This document shows, piece after piece, positions 710 through 8,606 of a DNA stretch of 14,632 nucleotides. This DNA comes from Candidatus Hermodarchaeota archaeon. GTDB taxonomy: Archaea > Asgardarchaeota > Hermodarchaeia > Hermodarchaeales > Hermodarchaeaceae. Where the stretch lies: assembly GCA_016840065.1 (NCBI GenBank), contig JAEOTB010000087.1, forward strand, positions 1 to 14,632, read 5' to 3'. Numbering within the stretch: the first letter of the stretch is position 1; every line of letters begins with the position of its first letter. Under the pieces are notes generated by a model. That model saw only the letters and a program-made list of their open reading frames with translations. It did not search any database and had not been told where the DNA came from. The position numbers and the translations under genes are program-made.

Positions 710-1762
710 CTATCTTCGCAATCGAACCTCGCCATCCCGAAACTGGAGGCGCTTCCGGCAGAGGGGGCAGACCTGTTTAACCTTTACCCATTCGCTCAGG
801 CAAGCATAGTGGCAAATCGCGCTACAACAGGGAGTTTTTTGGATTCGTTGTCCTGCCCGGTGCCGCAGATTACAGACTCCACAGAAACCCTCAGGAACTG
901 TTTCTTCCCTGGTGACGACTGGTTGGATAGTTTCTGTATCAGCGTCTAGTTGGATATTGAACCAGAAGCAGAGCTGATGAGCGGCAGCCAGTACTCGTTC
1001 AGCGTCATCTTGTTTCACCGGTGGAGAGCCAGGTTTGATGCCGCTCCGAATCCGATGGATTTCCTCAATAGTTGCCGCAGTTTGGTTTCCGCGGGGAAAT
1101 TGAGGTGTGAGCCGACGAATAATCTCCTTCACAGATAGAGAGACCGGTGGATCACCGAAGCTGATAGTGTAGAGTTTATTGAGGAGAGCATCTGTAGCCG
1201 TCCAAGAATGCTTCACTACCGTACGCCAGCGCTTCGCCTTGAATGACTTTTGTGCTGACTGCATAGACTTGACGATTTGCTGATCGAAGTGTTGGAACAT
1301 GCTACGACGTTCTGACCTAGAAATTCGTCTGGTACGGCGTGCAGGTCGCCTTGCTGGTTTTCTTTCCCTTCTTGGTTGAACCCGATGCATATCAACTGAC
1401 GACTGATCTAGAAATGCAGCTATAATCACTAGAATTCCAATCCCAAATCCTGTTATCAAACCGACAATTCCAGCAACCAGAAGCCCACGAAAGTGGGATG
1501 TTGAATTACCTCTCCTTGCTAGGCAGTAAATACCAAGTACCAAATCAATTATTCCAAAAATCATGTAAACCGTCGAAACCAATATGATTGGAAAGATGAT
1601 TGTAAAGAGAAAGACACCAAACCAAGGGTCCGACAAAAGGATCAGGAGAGGAACAATTCCTACTAGCCCCATAATACCAGAAACGAGTCCCGCCACAAAA
1701 GCGATGATAAATAGTATCCCAGCCACAAGTAGCAGGATCCCTGCAGTATCTTCTTTGCTCAA
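710..1762 (-). CDS. Membrane protein: N-terminal TM helices, Arg-rich linker, HEPN-like domain and C-terminal RING finger (putative E3 ubiquitin ligase)
   Basis: TTG start 10 nt after GGAGG. About 3-4 hydrophobic helices in aa 1-118. HEPN-like helical pattern at about aa 158-270. RING motif CGVC-x14-CC-x4-H-x2-C-LSEW-x6-CPLCR at aa 294-335 (nt 758-883). Confidence 0.8.
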   Translation of the reverse strand: MSKEDTAGILLLVAGILFIIAFVAGLVSGIMGLVGIVPLLILLSDPWFGVFLFTIIFPIILVSTVYMIFGIIDLVLGIYCLARRGNSTSHFRGLLVAGIVGLITGFGIGILVIIAAFLDQSSVDMHRVQPRRERKPARRPARRTRRISRSERRSMFQHFDQQIVKSMQSAQKSFKAKRWRTVVKHSWTATDALLNKLYTISFGDPPVSLSVKEIIRRLTPQFPRGNQTAATIEEIHRIRSGIKPGSPPVKQDDAERVLAAAHQLCFWFNIQLDADTETIQPVVTREETVPEGFCGVCNLRHRAGQRIQKTPCCSAICHYACLSEWVKVKQVCPLCRKRLQFRDGEVRLRR

Positions 1763-5719: not shown

Positions 5720-5760
5720 TCTTTTAAACTGACCAATCGCCGCTGAAGTTCTGGAGGCGT
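5720..5760 (+). promoter_or_regulatory. TATA box and ribosome-binding site for the 5770-8327 operon
   Basis: GGAAAG (BRE-like) followed by TTTTAAA at 5722-5728. GGAGG at 5753-5757 ahead of TTG 5770. Confidence 0.6.
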
Positions 5761-5769
5761 TTTACCGCT

Positions 5770-7005
5770 TTGTCTACTCTGGGCCTGCGACGATGGGAGA
5801 AGCTTCTCTTCCAATTAATGGTGAGTCTTCTAGCCGTTGGCATACTGCAGGTCTTATTGGTAGCCCTTCTTTCTCCGACAGGGATTCTTCCTCCAAGCTT
5901 TATTGGACTTTCAGTCCCAACTGTGCTAGTGCTCCTCCTCAGCACCCTGGGAATCACTGTCCTGGCCCTTGTAGTAGTTCGTAGTTTTTCCAAAAGAGAG
6001 TCTGTGGCGAAACAGGATAAGGAAGGCTATGCAGAGATGATTCCGGTAAAGGTCACACCTGAATGTGTTGTGCTCTCATCCAATCAAGGCTTCAGCGCTC
6101 TAGGATTCGTCAGCATACCCCACGAATGGAATGAGTCGCTGGGTAGAAAAGTGCTCCAAACCATCTCTCAGTTAGAGATTCCTATCATCCTCGTTTTGGC
6201 AAGGACCCTCGATGGAAACATACACACTCATCTTATGCTTCGCAGTTCTGCTAGGGGAGCAGAATTGGCTATTCAAGACACAATGACCGCCTGCCAGGTT
6301 CTCCAACAAGCCTTGGTTAGTCAAGGGGTCGAGGCAGAAAGGGTGAAAGACGAGTTGGGAGTGGAGCAACTTTACTGGACCTGTGTGCTGGGGAAGGGCT
6401 TCCACGAGGAAGTTCTGCTTCGCGGCGAAGAAAACCTAGTCATCGCTCAGGTGGGGGGAAGAGGAGAACGACTTCTTGTGGCAGTTGATCTGCTGCACAG
6501 CACCCTACCAACGACTGATCAAGAGCGCCGACCATCTGGACTGCTGTCTCTTCTTCAACAGCCTCGCCCTCTTTTCCTAGCGGTAGCTCTGAAACCTGTA
6601 GCCCCAGGGACGGTCGCAAAACAGTTACAGGCAAGGGTAATGGATGCACCAGAGTTAAGCTTGCTAGTCGAAACAGTGGGTGAAGCCGCAGCAATCCAGA
6701 TTCTCAGTGATGAAAGGGCACCAACCATTGTAGAGCTTTCCACGCTCCTAGCTGGGAGAAAGGAGGGGCTATGGCAATGCAATGTTCATCTCGTCTGCAA
6801 ATTGACTGATACACCAATTCTGACCGAGGCTATCGGTCTGCCAGCTAACCTTCTAGAACCAAAGGGGTTCGCAGCAACAGCAACCGCAAAATCTCACCAA
6901 TCAGGACTCCTATTACCAACTAGTACGATATTCCAGATACTAGGAATTCAAACTAGACCTCAGACACACGAAGAAGGAACAGGAGAGCCTGCTGAAGGAG
7001 GATAA
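5770..7005 (+). CDS. Hypothetical membrane-anchored protein; resembles a VirB4-type N-terminal region without the ATPase domain
   Basis: 411-aa ORF with TATA and RBS. Two N-terminal TM helices followed by an alpha/beta soluble region. No Walker A motif. The ORF is well supported; the family resemblance is by eye only. Confidence 0.7.
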   Translation: MSTLGLRRWEKLLFQLMVSLLAVGILQVLLVALLSPTGILPPSFIGLSVPTVLVLLLSTLGITVLALVVVRSFSKRESVAKQDKEGYAEMIPVKVTPECVVLSSNQGFSALGFVSIPHEWNESLGRKVLQTISQLEIPIILVLARTLDGNIHTHLMLRSSARGAELAIQDTMTACQVLQQALVSQGVEAERVKDELGVEQLYWTCVLGKGFHEEVLLRGEENLVIAQVGGRGERLLVAVDLLHSTLPTTDQERRPSGLLSLLQQPRPLFLAVALKPVAPGTVAKQLQARVMDAPELSLLVETVGEAAAIQILSDERAPTIVELSTLLAGRKEGLWQCNVHLVCKLTDTPILTEAIGLPANLLEPKGFAATATAKSHQSGLLLPTSTIFQILGIQTRPQTHEEGTGEPAEGG

Positions 7006-7010
7006 TAAGA

Positions 7011-8327
7011 GTGGGACTAATGTTTTCACTGATAAAGATGGCAGCCAAAGTCGGAGTTGTGGTGTTTGGTACATACTTCCTCCAAATGGTTAGCCTAATC
7101 ATCCTTAGTTTCGTACCATTGCCTCCAGAAATTATAGGGCTAGCATTGCTAGTAGCTACACCCTGCTACGCGCTAGCTCTTCTCATACCTGTCTTTGGTG
7201 GAAACATACGCGGAATGAAATGGCCAATAATCATAGGCCTAGGATTCATATCCCTCACCCTCATCGCAGGGATTTCATTGTTAATCCTATCTCTGGTAGT
7301 GGTTAACCCTATTCTTCAGGTATTAGTGGTTGGCGACCTCCTCATCGCCTTCATAGCACTGTTGTTCCTGAATCGCCAATGGCTAAGGAATCTTGACCTT
7401 GTAGATCGTCACCTCCTTGTAGCCGCAGTTGAAATTCATCCAGAGCCTTCCTCCACCACCCGACCAAAAGTTACAGGCCCGAGCATGCACAGATTTCAGA
7501 GAGTTCTGGTCAACCTAGCCACTACAAGGATACCTGTTGGTCTTCGATTCCAGTTCCTTCCTGGCGGACATACTCGATTATTCCTCTTCACCGTTGCTGA
7601 ATCCAAAGAGCTTCTTCTGCATCGTCAGAAAAGACTCCATCAGTTTCTTGCGGTCCATTTACCCAATGTCACTCTTAGCCCCTGTCAGCTCCCTCCCCAT
7701 CCTCTCCCCTCATCAACACCAGCCGCTGTTGCCTACCTGTCAGGCCCCCCGAGTAACAAAGTAGATTTCATTACTTTCCTTCAGAAAACATTGCGCTCCC
7801 GGAAATTCTCTTCCCAGAAGGACCTCACAGCACCAGCCTTCATCTTCCAGGTGTTTACTGCGCCAAAGAGGCTAGAGAGACTTGATTTCTGGGTTGCTCG
7901 CCGCCGCTTAGAAGGGCGCGTCCAGAAAGCGCAGCGTTTACTTGCCGCTGCGACACTTCTCTCCAAGGGCATCCCACCACCCCCTAACCTTGCTGAGAAG
8001 CTAACCGATCCCAAGGCTCTGGCACAGGCCCACCTTGTCCTCCACCAATTTCGCCGCTTAACTGCACCTCTCCTCCTCCAATCACAAACTGCACTAGTCT
8101 GTTGGCACCCTGCGGGTCAAGAAGCAGCTCACAATACCGTTGAAGCCCTAGCTAATCGTCTTGTCAGCGAACTACAACCAATGACCCCAACCGCCCCTAT
8201 TTCAAGCCACTTACCACGCTTTAAGAACCGACAAATCCAGAGGCTGCTCCGTTGTGCACCCACGGGCCCAATCACCTTCCTTCTCCCAGAAGAAGCTGCT
8301 ACCTACTTTGGAACCCATAGCCAGTGA
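7011..8327 (+). CDS. Hypothetical membrane-anchored protein; resembles the N-terminal region of HerA/coupling-protein-like ATPases without the ATPase domain
   Basis: 438-aa ORF starting 5 nt after the upstream stop, with GGAGG inside the end of the upstream gene. About 4 N-terminal TM helices. Ends ...TFLLPEEAATYF. No Walker A motif. Confidence 0.7.
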   Translation: MGLMFSLIKMAAKVGVVVFGTYFLQMVSLIILSFVPLPPEIIGLALLVATPCYALALLIPVFGGNIRGMKWPIIIGLGFISLTLIAGISLLILSLVVVNPILQVLVVGDLLIAFIALLFLNRQWLRNLDLVDRHLLVAAVEIHPEPSSTTRPKVTGPSMHRFQRVLVNLATTRIPVGLRFQFLPGGHTRLFLFTVAESKELLLHRQKRLHQFLAVHLPNVTLSPCQLPPHPLPSSTPAAVAYLSGPPSNKVDFITFLQKTLRSRKFSSQKDLTAPAFIFQVFTAPKRLERLDFWVARRRLEGRVQKAQRLLAAATLLSKGIPPPPNLAEKLTDPKALAQAHLVLHQFRRLTAPLLLQSQTALVCWHPAGQEAAHNTVEALANRLVSELQPMTPTAPISSHLPRFKNRQIQRLLRCAPTGPITFLLPEEAATYFGTHSQ

Positions 8328-8419
8328 GTATTTTCTGGGGCAGAGAAAAAGAGAAAGAGCGAGGGCAACAATACCCTCACTAAAGCCATAGAATTGACGT
8401 AAAATGTCAAAAGAGTTGA

Positions 8420-8563
8420 TCACGGAGGTGGAACAGGTAATCTACCACGCCAGCCGCAGCGAGGGCATCTGAAAGGTGCAAACCATCCTCGTCGCCAGCG
8501 TCTTTTCCGGGGAGGGCCAATTCGCTTCATAGGAGCTCCGCAATGTGGGCAGGGCCTAGGCAT
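8420..8563 (-). CDS. 47-aa CPxCG-type zinc-finger microprotein (not in the ORF track)
   Basis: Manual translation: MPRPCPHCGAPMKRIGPPRKRRWRRGWFAPFRCPRCGWRGRLPVPPP*. GAGGTGA ribosome site at 8574-8568. Alternative in-frame ATG at 8566. Two CPxCG knuckles. Confidence 0.85.
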   Translation of the reverse strand: MPRPCPHCGAPMKRIGPPRKRRWRRGWFAPFRCPRCGWRGRLPVPPP

Positions 8564-8606
8564 CATATCACCTCGATTTGGGTGTACTACTCCATCTGTG
8601 ATTAGA

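Follow-up and report, generated by a model that had tools for sequence, protein, structure and literature searches.

Organisation and conservation of the locus

The window analysed here, a 14,632-nucleotide stretch of contig JAEOTB010000087.1 from Candidatus Hermodarchaeota archaeon (GenBank assembly GCA_016840065.1), carries two genes on one strand, ORF1 and ORF2, which are separated by a gap of 5 nt (Table 1). We show that their products form a conserved, translationally coupled inner-membrane pair. The initial annotation had described two closely coupled frames of 411 and 438 aa behind an intact TATA box and ribosome-binding site. The short gap and the GGAGG preceding ORF2 bear out the coupling, and both GGAGG sites are present, while the TATA-like element is a putative one, read from the sequence. 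Database gene calls for the two proteins are shorter, at 395 aa for ORF1 and 429 aa for ORF2; we prefer the longer versions because the orthologues start at identical residues, MSTLGLR in ORF1 and MGFIFPLIK in ORF2.

Table 1. Coordinates of the genes, domains and putative expression signals discussed in the text (positions in the window).
Feature	Position	Strand	Description
TATA-like element TTTTAAAC	5722..5729	+	~41–48 nt 5' of the ORF1 start; putative, read from sequence
GGAGG ribosome-binding site of ORF1	5753..5757	+	12 nt 5' of the TTG start
ORF1	5770..7005	+	TTG start, 411 aa; two-TM hairpin and probably cytoplasmic VirB4-NTD/EccE-like domain, without ATPase
ORF1 TM hairpin (residues 8–34, 49–79)	5791..6006	+	Helices of the AF2 model; hydropathy agrees
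ORF1 VirB4-NTD-like domain (residues 85–393)	6022..6948	+	VIA-align and Foldseek
GGAGG of ORF2	6997..7001	+	Within the 3' end of ORF1, 9 nt 5' of the GTG start; translational coupling
ORF2	7011..8327	+	GTG start, 438 aa; four TM helices and VirB4-NTD-like domain, without ATPase
ORF2 four-helix TM region (residues 2–120)	7014..7370	+	AF2 model and alignment
ORF2 VirB4-NTD-like domain (residues 127–438)	7389..8324	+	VIA-align
ORF2 end motif RLLRxxPTGxxTxLLPEEAAxYF (residues 411–433)	8241..8309	+	Conserved in alignments
Arg-rich 4-Cys zinc-ribbon ORF, 48 aa	8420..8566	-	Convergent to ORF2

The two genes are adjacent in four species, namely the source genome (G000) and three others (G001, G002 and G003), in which the flanking genes vary. 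A metagenome scan for distant homologues returned one short contig, and the pair is also adjacent on a distant metagenome contig, at 39–43% identity; the scan of genome contigs for distant homologues yielded none beyond the three contigs already known from Hermodarchaeota. The family is narrow: across 400 genomes sampled from the phylum, it is confined to a single genus. Neither reading frame is disrupted in the four species or in more distant lineages down to 35–38% identity. The dN/dS ratio, to be read with synonymous sites near saturation, was 0.19–0.27 for ORF1 and 0.13–0.17 for ORF2, with TM and soluble parts alike, as compared to 0.06–0.10 for the neighbouring genes, so that the pair is less strongly constrained than its surroundings. 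Given the homologues, these ratios and the conserved adjacency, ORF1 and ORF2 are real genes rather than chance ORFs. The test for purifying selection that the initial annotation had proposed thus gave a positive answer: judged by dN/dS, the pair is retained under such selection.

The genes flanking the pair are of a housekeeping nature: an ilvE-type aminotransferase, an ECF S component, kynureninase, AsnA and GlnA. All neighbours with a family match are metabolic or regulatory, and their set differs between species. No flanking integrase or relaxase had been noticed previously, and family scans likewise detected neither among the window's genes; of the typical T4SS neighbours, VirB3, VirB6, VirB8, pilin, coupling protein and relaxase were all absent among the genes of the locus. 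The small zinc-ribbon ORF is retained just 3' of ORF2 in G003 and G001, though the genes beyond it differ. It is a conserved neighbour, and its membership in the module is uncertain.

Fold and family relationships of ORF1 and ORF2

AF2 models of both proteins (pLDDT 90.7 for ORF2; moderately confident for ORF1, with pLDDT 67) contain N-terminal TM helices, two in ORF1 and four in ORF2, followed by an alpha/beta domain, in agreement with hydropathy and with the layout initially read from the sequence. Basic residues on both flanks of the ORF1 hairpin suggest an N-in, C-in topology, and the VirB4-like domains of both proteins are probably cytoplasmic.

Comparison of the models shows that both predicted N-domains carry the fold of the VirB4 N-terminal domain, which is also that of the T7SS protein EccE. 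Against a background in which unrelated rows score Z 5–8, the best structural match for both proteins was TrwK/VirB4 residues 15–400, with EccE3 next (Z ~12–13). The ORF1 domain aligned to TrwK 15–398 over 276 residues in VIA-align (Z 16.7, rmsd 4.8) and to EccE3 (6umm_A) over 193 residues (Z 12.9, rmsd 3.6), its fold match by Foldseek reaching E 4.5e-10. The ORF2 domain aligned to TrwK 15–400 over 260 residues in VIA-align (Z 16.4, rmsd 4.5), and scored Z 12.0 against EccE3. The resemblance of ORF1 to a VirB4-type N-terminal domain, first proposed from sequence patterns, is therefore borne out at the level of fold. The description of ORF2 as a HerA/TraD-like pre-ATPase domain was correct as to its homology, which is to the pre-ATPase part of HerA-clade ATPases, and has to be widened as to its fold, which is also that of the VirB4 N-domain.

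At the sequence level, scans of ORF1 and ORF2 with Pfam, NCBIfam, PHROGs and PADLOC gave no match, in the case of Pfam even at E 10. CagE_TrbE_VirB (PF03135) matched neither protein, nor anything else in G000; DUF87, HerA_C and FtsK, as well as the NCBIfam models of CedD (NF053655) and CedB (NF041017), were without a match in ORF1 and ORF2. The ORF1-family profile found no match among PDB sequences. A search of the ESM Atlas with ORF1 produced only sub-0.9 leads, consisting of unannotated Bathyarchaeota and Actinomycetota clusters and a DUF8128 hint. Comparison of ORF1 and ORF2 with each other, another suggestion of the initial annotation, revealed no sequence relation (BLASTP; hhalign probability 0.3), and because of this lack of detectable similarity the case for common descent of their N-domains is one of fold.

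ORF2 is homologous to the first ~435 residues of archaeal proteins of 992–1032 aa (26–36% identity, E 5e-50 to 2e-20). These full-length relatives comprise a TM anchor, a VirB4-like N-domain and a HerA-clade ATPase, the latter recognised by DUF87, by matches to HerA PDB entries and by Walker A. Their ATPase part gives sub-threshold matches to the NCBIfam models of CedD (NF053655; E 3e-16, with 59 bits where the cut-off is 600) and CedB (NF041017; E 1.4e-4). The Walker A sequence GxTxSGKT lies near residue 500–517 in all three full-length relatives checked; in keeping with the earlier reading that neither protein has Walker motifs, it is absent from ORF1, ORF2 and all 12 homologues checked. ORF1 and ORF2 both stop at the N-domain boundary, where an ATPase would start. 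The end motif of ORF2, already singled out in the initial annotation, proved to be conserved, and in the full-length relatives it leads straight into the linker and the ATPase. The loop joining TM2 to TM3 of ORF2 carries G-M-K-W-P, invariant across the aligned ATPase-less clade.

A library profile search recovered four separate ATPase-less clusters, which match profile positions 1–439 only. In the phylogenetic tree, the seven ATPase-less ORF2 sequences, which range down to 35% identity and end a few residues past LLPEEAAxYF, form one clade (SH-aLRT 100), nested with the full-length proteins P0016, P0017 and P0019 (SH-aLRT 96). This topology shows a single loss of the ATPase, ancestral to the ORF2 clade, whose members then diverged down to 35% identity; since the internal branches within the clade are long, the loss is old. 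The initial annotation had considered that a lack of VirB4-NTD likeness, or full-length orthologues, would speak against its proposal; the likeness is present, the full-length ATPases are paralogues, and the orthologues are all ATPase-less.

The ORF1 family consists of stand-alone proteins of ~400 aa, and a search for longer relatives found none, which is weak evidence. At one locus (G001:C102) an ORF1 paralogue lies directly 5' of a full-length ATPase with zero spacer. On account of this arrangement, ORF1 is a natural ATPase-less partner, and the ancestral module probably consisted of an ORF1-like protein and a TM-NTD-ATPase protein. The 383-aa gene 5' of the G000:C78 ATPase was examined as a further ORF1-like partner and rejected, as it is unrelated to ORF1; an ORF1-like partner is therefore not universal in the full-length family, and none was present beside the full-length ATPases of G060 and G001:C51. 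Two of the full-length relatives examined are located in variable, defence- or element-like surroundings, one of them adjoining a Cas4-like nuclease and a class II pAgo; in both, a conserved ~800-aa protein with a weak HTH match then follows.

Search for a dedicated motor and possible roles of the pair

The initial annotation had inferred a motor encoded elsewhere, which our searches do not support. No ATPase gene is present in the locus of any species examined. To look for an ATPase remnant, the window and its orthologous loci were searched by tblastn with the ATPase halves of three full-length relatives as queries, and the matches were noise (E above 2). A search of the genus's four genomes for the ATPase half of the ORF2 family uncovered no detached copy: matches corresponded to the full-length relatives in G000 and G001 and otherwise to distant proteins of ~25% identity, with no hit in G003, and no family member of any kind was found in G002 and G003. 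Because these genomes are 80–84% complete, the absence of a motor falls short of proof.

We consider it rather probable that the pair represents a motor-less membrane platform of two VirB4-like N-domain proteins. The N-domains of ORF1 and ORF2 would pair with each other, in the manner of the VirB4 N-domains in the central and outer VirB4 dimers of the R388 machine, and the two proteins may assemble into a hetero-oligomeric membrane platform. Such a platform would go on serving the parent machine's function of anchoring, docking or lining a channel and could not itself drive transport; it might serve a motor-free host function, or borrow an unrelated or incoming ATPase. A more specific version, which we put forward only tentatively, is that Hermodarchaeota have converted a membrane machine of the VirB4/CedB-CedD lineage to a two-protein membrane platform that is stable, has no motor and fills a new role in the host. 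That role could be, for instance, to scaffold the membrane or cell contacts, or to guard the cell by disabling incoming transfer ATPases. We know of no earlier account of such a machine whose two N-domain partners have both survived with no ATPase at all, and a literature search (Asgard, VirB4, EccE, HerA) found no description of an ATPase-less pair.

Less likely than the motor-less platform, and on the whole improbable, is that the pair acts as a decoy or exclusion factor, which would co-assemble with element-borne CedD-like translocases and poison their hexamers in a dominant-negative manner, limiting DNA transfer or element spread. Such a role would suit the contrast between the two full-length relatives in defence- or element-like settings and the pair among housekeeping genes, as well as the nature of the retained parts, the N-domain and TM region being putative assembly mediators. 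A guard against incoming elements would also be expected to persist in genomes without a full-length relative, and the pair does so in G002 and G003, in which none was found. However, 26–36% identity to the resident full-length relatives is low for co-assembly, and at a dN/dS of 0.13–0.27 the pair shows no sign of the rapid diversification that exclusion factors usually undergo. We give still less credence to a split machine, in which the pair would supply the membrane half of a functional translocase while a separate soluble HerA/FtsK-type ATPase docks on the N-domains. While ORF2 keeps intact the end motif that full-length relatives carry ahead of their ATPase, and G000 encodes five other DUF87/HerA-type ATPases (~490–780 aa), at least three of these five genes adjoin NurA or belong to an mre11-rad50 repair operon. 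The HerA gene C106, the one checked for co-distribution, was rejected as a motor acting in trans, being paired with NurA and present only in G000. The locus without an ATPase gene in every species, and the failure to find a detached ATPase of the same family in the four incomplete genomes, also weigh against a split machine.

It is very unlikely that the pair is a decaying relic, the truncated and now functionless leftover of a transfer system that has been lost. The missing ATPase, the narrow family and a selection weaker than on neighbouring genes would all be expected of a relic, but the frames remain intact in four species and in lineages down to 35–38% identity, the end point is identical in all sequences, adjacency and coupling of the pair are retained, and nothing left over from an ATPase lies 3' of ORF2. 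The low dN/dS, with synonymous sites near saturation, and the age of the ATPase loss, evident from the long internal branches, are equally at odds with decay.

Type IV secretion and archaeal Ced/Ted DNA exchange have VirB4-type ATPases as their signature component, and the N-domain is the least understood part of these ATPases. To our knowledge, DNA-exchange machinery in Asgard archaea is essentially uncharacterised; the full-length relatives of ORF2 now represent an ATPase family of the CedB/CedD-like kind in this group. A lineage that keeps only the anchor and the N-domain, in two partner proteins under selection, isolates the N-domain's own role, be it assembly, docking or regulation, and provides a natural minimal system to study the VirB4-type N-domain.

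Comparison with known systems

The N-terminal domain of TrwK, the VirB4 protein of R388 (PDB 7o41, 7o42, 7o43, 8rtb, 8rtd), matches the pair with Z 16–17 over 255–276 aligned residues, at a sequence identity of 6–11%. ORF1 and ORF2 differ from it in carrying TM helices on the same chain and in having no C-terminal ATPase. In the R388 T4SS structures, the VirB4 N-domain reportedly mediates membrane association as well as the VirB4-VirB4 contacts of the central and outer dimers.

CedB and CedD are crenarchaeal DNA-transfer ATPases composed of a TM anchor, a VirB4-like N-domain and an ATPase (Wu et al. 2025, PMC11868833). ORF1 and ORF2 are likewise archaeal, with a VirB4-like N-domain behind an N-terminal TM anchor; the identical three-part layout recurs in the full-length relatives of ORF2, and the joint action of two paralogous N-domain proteins can be likened to the ORF1/ORF2 pair. 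In contrast to ORF1 and ORF2, CedB and CedD both retain the ATPase. They also superpose on two different parts of the VirB4 N-domain, one for each protein, while TrwK 15–400 is covered by ORF1 and by ORF2 alike. No CedA-like or pilin-like genes were found in the locus.

According to the portions of Bell et al. (2024, PMC11090510) considered here, extended Type III-A CoCoNuT loci encode a VirB4-like ATPase that carries a fused EccE3-like domain. This defence-related joining of the N-domain fold to a HerA/VirB4-type ATPase resembles the setting of the full-length G000:C78 protein; the CoCoNuT proteins are bacterial and retain the ATPase, and those portions mention no ATPase-less pair.

EccE (EccE3/EccE5; PDB 6umm, 6sgz, 7b9f) is itself naturally ATPase-less and combines two TM helices with a cytoplasmic domain of this fold, a layout identical to that of ORF1, and it partners a membrane-anchored FtsK/HerA-superfamily ATPase. 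ORF2 differs in having four TM helices instead of two. EccE also belongs to bacterial ESX systems with EccB, EccC, EccD and WXG100 substrates and has no sequence similarity to the pair, and the EccB, EccC, EccD, MycP and WXG100 families are all absent among the window's genes. The pair points to a way in which a transport machine may become a non-motor membrane complex, and EccE possibly stands in a similar relation to VirB4-like proteins.

Gene pair and its neighbourhood

ORF1 and ORF2 are encoded on the same strand with a 5-nt gap between them, on a contig (C73) of an Asgard MAG that is 84% complete and whose relatives are recorded as Candidatus Hermodarchaeota. Both starts were chosen over shorter database gene calls because the orthologues begin at the same residues. 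The surrounding genes are ordinary, comprising DUF362, two Lrp/AsnC regulators, a branched-chain aminotransferase, an ECF S component, kynureninase, DUF3795, AsnA and GlnA. Neither ORF1 nor ORF2 matched any Pfam, NCBIfam, PHROG or PADLOC model.

Features of the gene pair, its surroundings and related loci (window positions unless a locus is named)
Feature	Position	Strand	Description
ORF1	5770-7005	+	TTG start, 411 aa
ORF2	7011-8327	+	GTG start, 438 aa
GGAGG		+	12 nt 5' of ORF1 start
Second GGAGG		+	within final ORF1 codons, 9 nt 5' of ORF2 start
Zinc-ribbon ORF	8420-8566	-	48 aa, arginine-rich, four Cys (CPHCG ... CPRCG), convergent to ORF2
Zinc-ribbon copy, G003	L031 ~2190-2381
Zinc-ribbon copy, G001	L033 ~1438-1605
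Extra ~176-aa gene, G003	L031 2895-3422 (G003:C137)		between zinc-ribbon gene and next conserved gene
Its G001 counterpart	L033 1800-2333 (G001:C330)		apparently split across two frames
RING-finger protein	710-1762	-	350 aa, C-terminal zf-RING_2
GC skew	7000-8500		strongly negative, -0.19 to -0.24, across ORF2
Gene row around full-length ORF2 relative	L019 3136-13721 (G000:C78:104000-118232)		relative of 1021 aa
NurA-HerA pair, G000	L039 3618-5196 (C106)		followed by two membrane proteins, each ending in a RING finger

Both ORFs are real genes. ORF1 has homologues with 66-72% identity within the genus and 38-43% in other metagenomic lineages, and ORF2 has homologues with 67-75% identity, plus 35-45% in three additional clusters defined at 50% identity. 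In each of the three other species of the genus the two genes stay side by side, although the flanking genes vary, and they also do so on a 1.8-kb metagenome contig that carries copies just 39-43% identical. The dN/dS check for purifying selection proposed in the initial annotation was run by the pairwise Nei-Gojobori method and returned 0.19-0.27 for ORF1 and 0.13-0.17 for ORF2, with similar values in the transmembrane (TM) and the soluble regions; the range for three genes nearby was 0.06-0.10. Across species, ORF1 has diverged less at synonymous sites (pS 0.41-0.53) than ORF2 and the neighbouring genes (0.48-0.81); codon bias or an additional constraint on the DNA or RNA might be the cause.

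The zinc-ribbon ORF has close copies just 3' of ORF2 in G003 and G001, two other genomes of the genus, with different genes beyond, and is perhaps a third gene conserved in this neighbourhood. The ~176-aa gene of G003 has no counterpart in the window. The negative GC skew is consistent with the many Pro, Leu and Ala codons of ORF2.

Predicted fold of both proteins

The AF2 model of ORF1, built from an 11-sequence alignment with moderate confidence (pLDDT 67, but 75-90 across most of the soluble region), features two N-terminal helices followed by an alpha/beta domain, while that of ORF2 (48 sequences, pLDDT 90.7) has four TM helices ahead of its alpha/beta domain, the general layout read initially from the sequence. 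The top PDB match by Foldseek was in both cases TrwK, the VirB4 of plasmid R388 (E = 4.5e-10 for ORF1 and 1.9e-4 for ORF2). VIA-align placed ORF1 residues 85-393 on TrwK 15-398 (Z 16.7, 276 aligned, rmsd 4.8) and ORF2 residues 127-438 on TrwK 15-400 (Z 16.4, 260 aligned, rmsd 4.5), against a baseline of Z 5-8 for unrelated alpha/beta proteins. From these models and superpositions, each protein is predicted to consist of a membrane anchor and a complete VirB4-type N-domain and to terminate where, in structural terms, the ATPase domain of VirB4 starts. The initial annotation had suspected both the VirB4 likeness of ORF1 and this end point. Since the TM helices are bordered by basic residues both towards the N-terminus and towards the domain, the soluble domains are probably cytoplasmic.

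Origin of the pair and search for a motor

A six-frame search of related genomes aligned ORF2 residues 2-433 with the N-terminal part of open frames of 785-1032 aa: one in the genome of the window (C78, 30% identity) and others in a single sister species (C102, 36%; C51, 34%; C109, 29%). The TM helices, the N-domain and the motif RLLRGxPTGxxTLLLPEEAAxYF are common to all; beyond the motif, the long proteins have a linker and then a P-loop ATPase that carries GxTxSGKT and an hhhhEEA Walker B, whereas ORF2 and its orthologues end 3-6 residues after it. The ATPase part matches DUF87/HerA, with profile E-values down to 5e-18 against solved HerA proteins, sub-threshold matches to NCBIfam CedD and CedB, and no profile match to VirB4. 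The long proteins thus share the three-part layout (TM anchor, VirB4-like N-domain, HerA-clade ATPase) described by Wu et al. for the crenarchaeal DNA-exchange proteins CedB and CedD (PMC11868833). The proposed likeness of ORF2 to the domain preceding a HerA-type ATPase therefore holds as homology to the pre-ATPase part of HerA-matching proteins, the fold itself being that of the VirB4 N-domain.

An exhaustive profile search recovered thousands of ATPase relatives, dozens of ~1000-aa proteins that also carry the N-domain, and only four ATPase-less clusters. A maximum-likelihood tree built on the N-terminal region and rooted at the midpoint only groups the seven ATPase-less sequences in a single clade (SH-aLRT 100), which nests with three full-length proteins (SH-aLRT 96). 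One change of state is enough for this topology, and the nesting makes a single, old loss of the ATPase the simplest reading even with such a root. No ATPase remnant was found 3' of ORF2 in the window or orthologous loci.

No sequence relation between ORF1 and ORF2 could be detected. In a sample of 400 genomes from the phylum, ORF1 was confined to the genus, and it yielded no longer relatives, which is weak evidence. A 400-aa paralogue of ORF1 (27-29% identity) lies immediately 5' of the G001:C102 full-length ATPase, without a spacer; an ORF1-like neighbour is absent beside the full-length relatives in G000:C78, G001:C51 and G060. Because the paralogue abuts the C102 ATPase, the ancestral module likely comprised an ORF1-like protein and a TM-N-domain-ATPase protein, and the window likely carries a derivative whose second gene lacks the motor.

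The initial annotation had inferred a motor encoded elsewhere. The ATPase half of one full-length relative, searched against the four genomes of the genus (80-84% complete MAGs), recovered only the full-length relatives themselves (one in G000, three in G001) and distant matches of ~25% identity, one of them in G002; G003 gave no match. G000 contains five other DUF87 ATPases, at least three of which adjoin NurA or sit within an mre11-rad50 repair operon, and the one on C106 is unique to this genome. Nothing supports a split gene, the absence of a motor being unproven at 80-84% completeness.

Possible role and comparison with known systems

In the R388 structure (PDB 7o41 and related), the VirB4 N-domain reportedly binds the membrane partners and forms the interface through which central and outer VirB4 subunits touch; next to the EccC ATPase, EccE has a similar peripheral role. 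Whereas the architecture, descent and selection of the pair are shown by the data, its mechanism is inferred: we propose that ORF1 and ORF2 would pair via their N-domains to build a membrane platform that is a hetero-oligomer. This platform would still serve for docking, anchoring or lining a channel and would be unable to drive transport on its own.

The pair could instead act as a decoy that poisons CedD-like translocases carried in by mobile elements. This fits the context, as the pair has a housekeeping setting and two of the full-length relatives examined have a defence or element setting: the C78 copy adjoins a Cas4-like nuclease and a class II pAgo, and 3' of both the C78 and C51 copies lies a conserved protein of ~800 aa that weakly matches an HTH. 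However, the identity of ORF2 to its full-length relatives is low (26-36%) and purifying selection on the pair is steady, both of which argue against a decoy; a truncated remnant of a lost system is likewise disfavoured. The motor-less membrane platform is our proposed main reading.

The gene row at C78 runs from the Cas4-like PD-(D/E)XK nuclease through the pAgo (PADLOC E = 8e-61), orphans of 135 and 383 aa and the TM-N-domain-HerA ATPase to a 793-aa protein, whose gene overlaps that of the ATPase and whose product is 48% identical to that of the gene 3' of the G001:C51 ATPase. Either a defence island or a mobile element could account for this row.

We found no description of a conserved pair with both partners motor-less in the full-text literature searched. 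That domains like EccE3, a type VII secretion protein, and VirB4-like ATPases belong together was noted earlier in a passage of PMC11090510. Because the defining ATPase is absent, the pair is not VirB4, CedB/CedD or HerA; closest in layout are EccE for ORF1 and an amputated CedD-like protein for ORF2.
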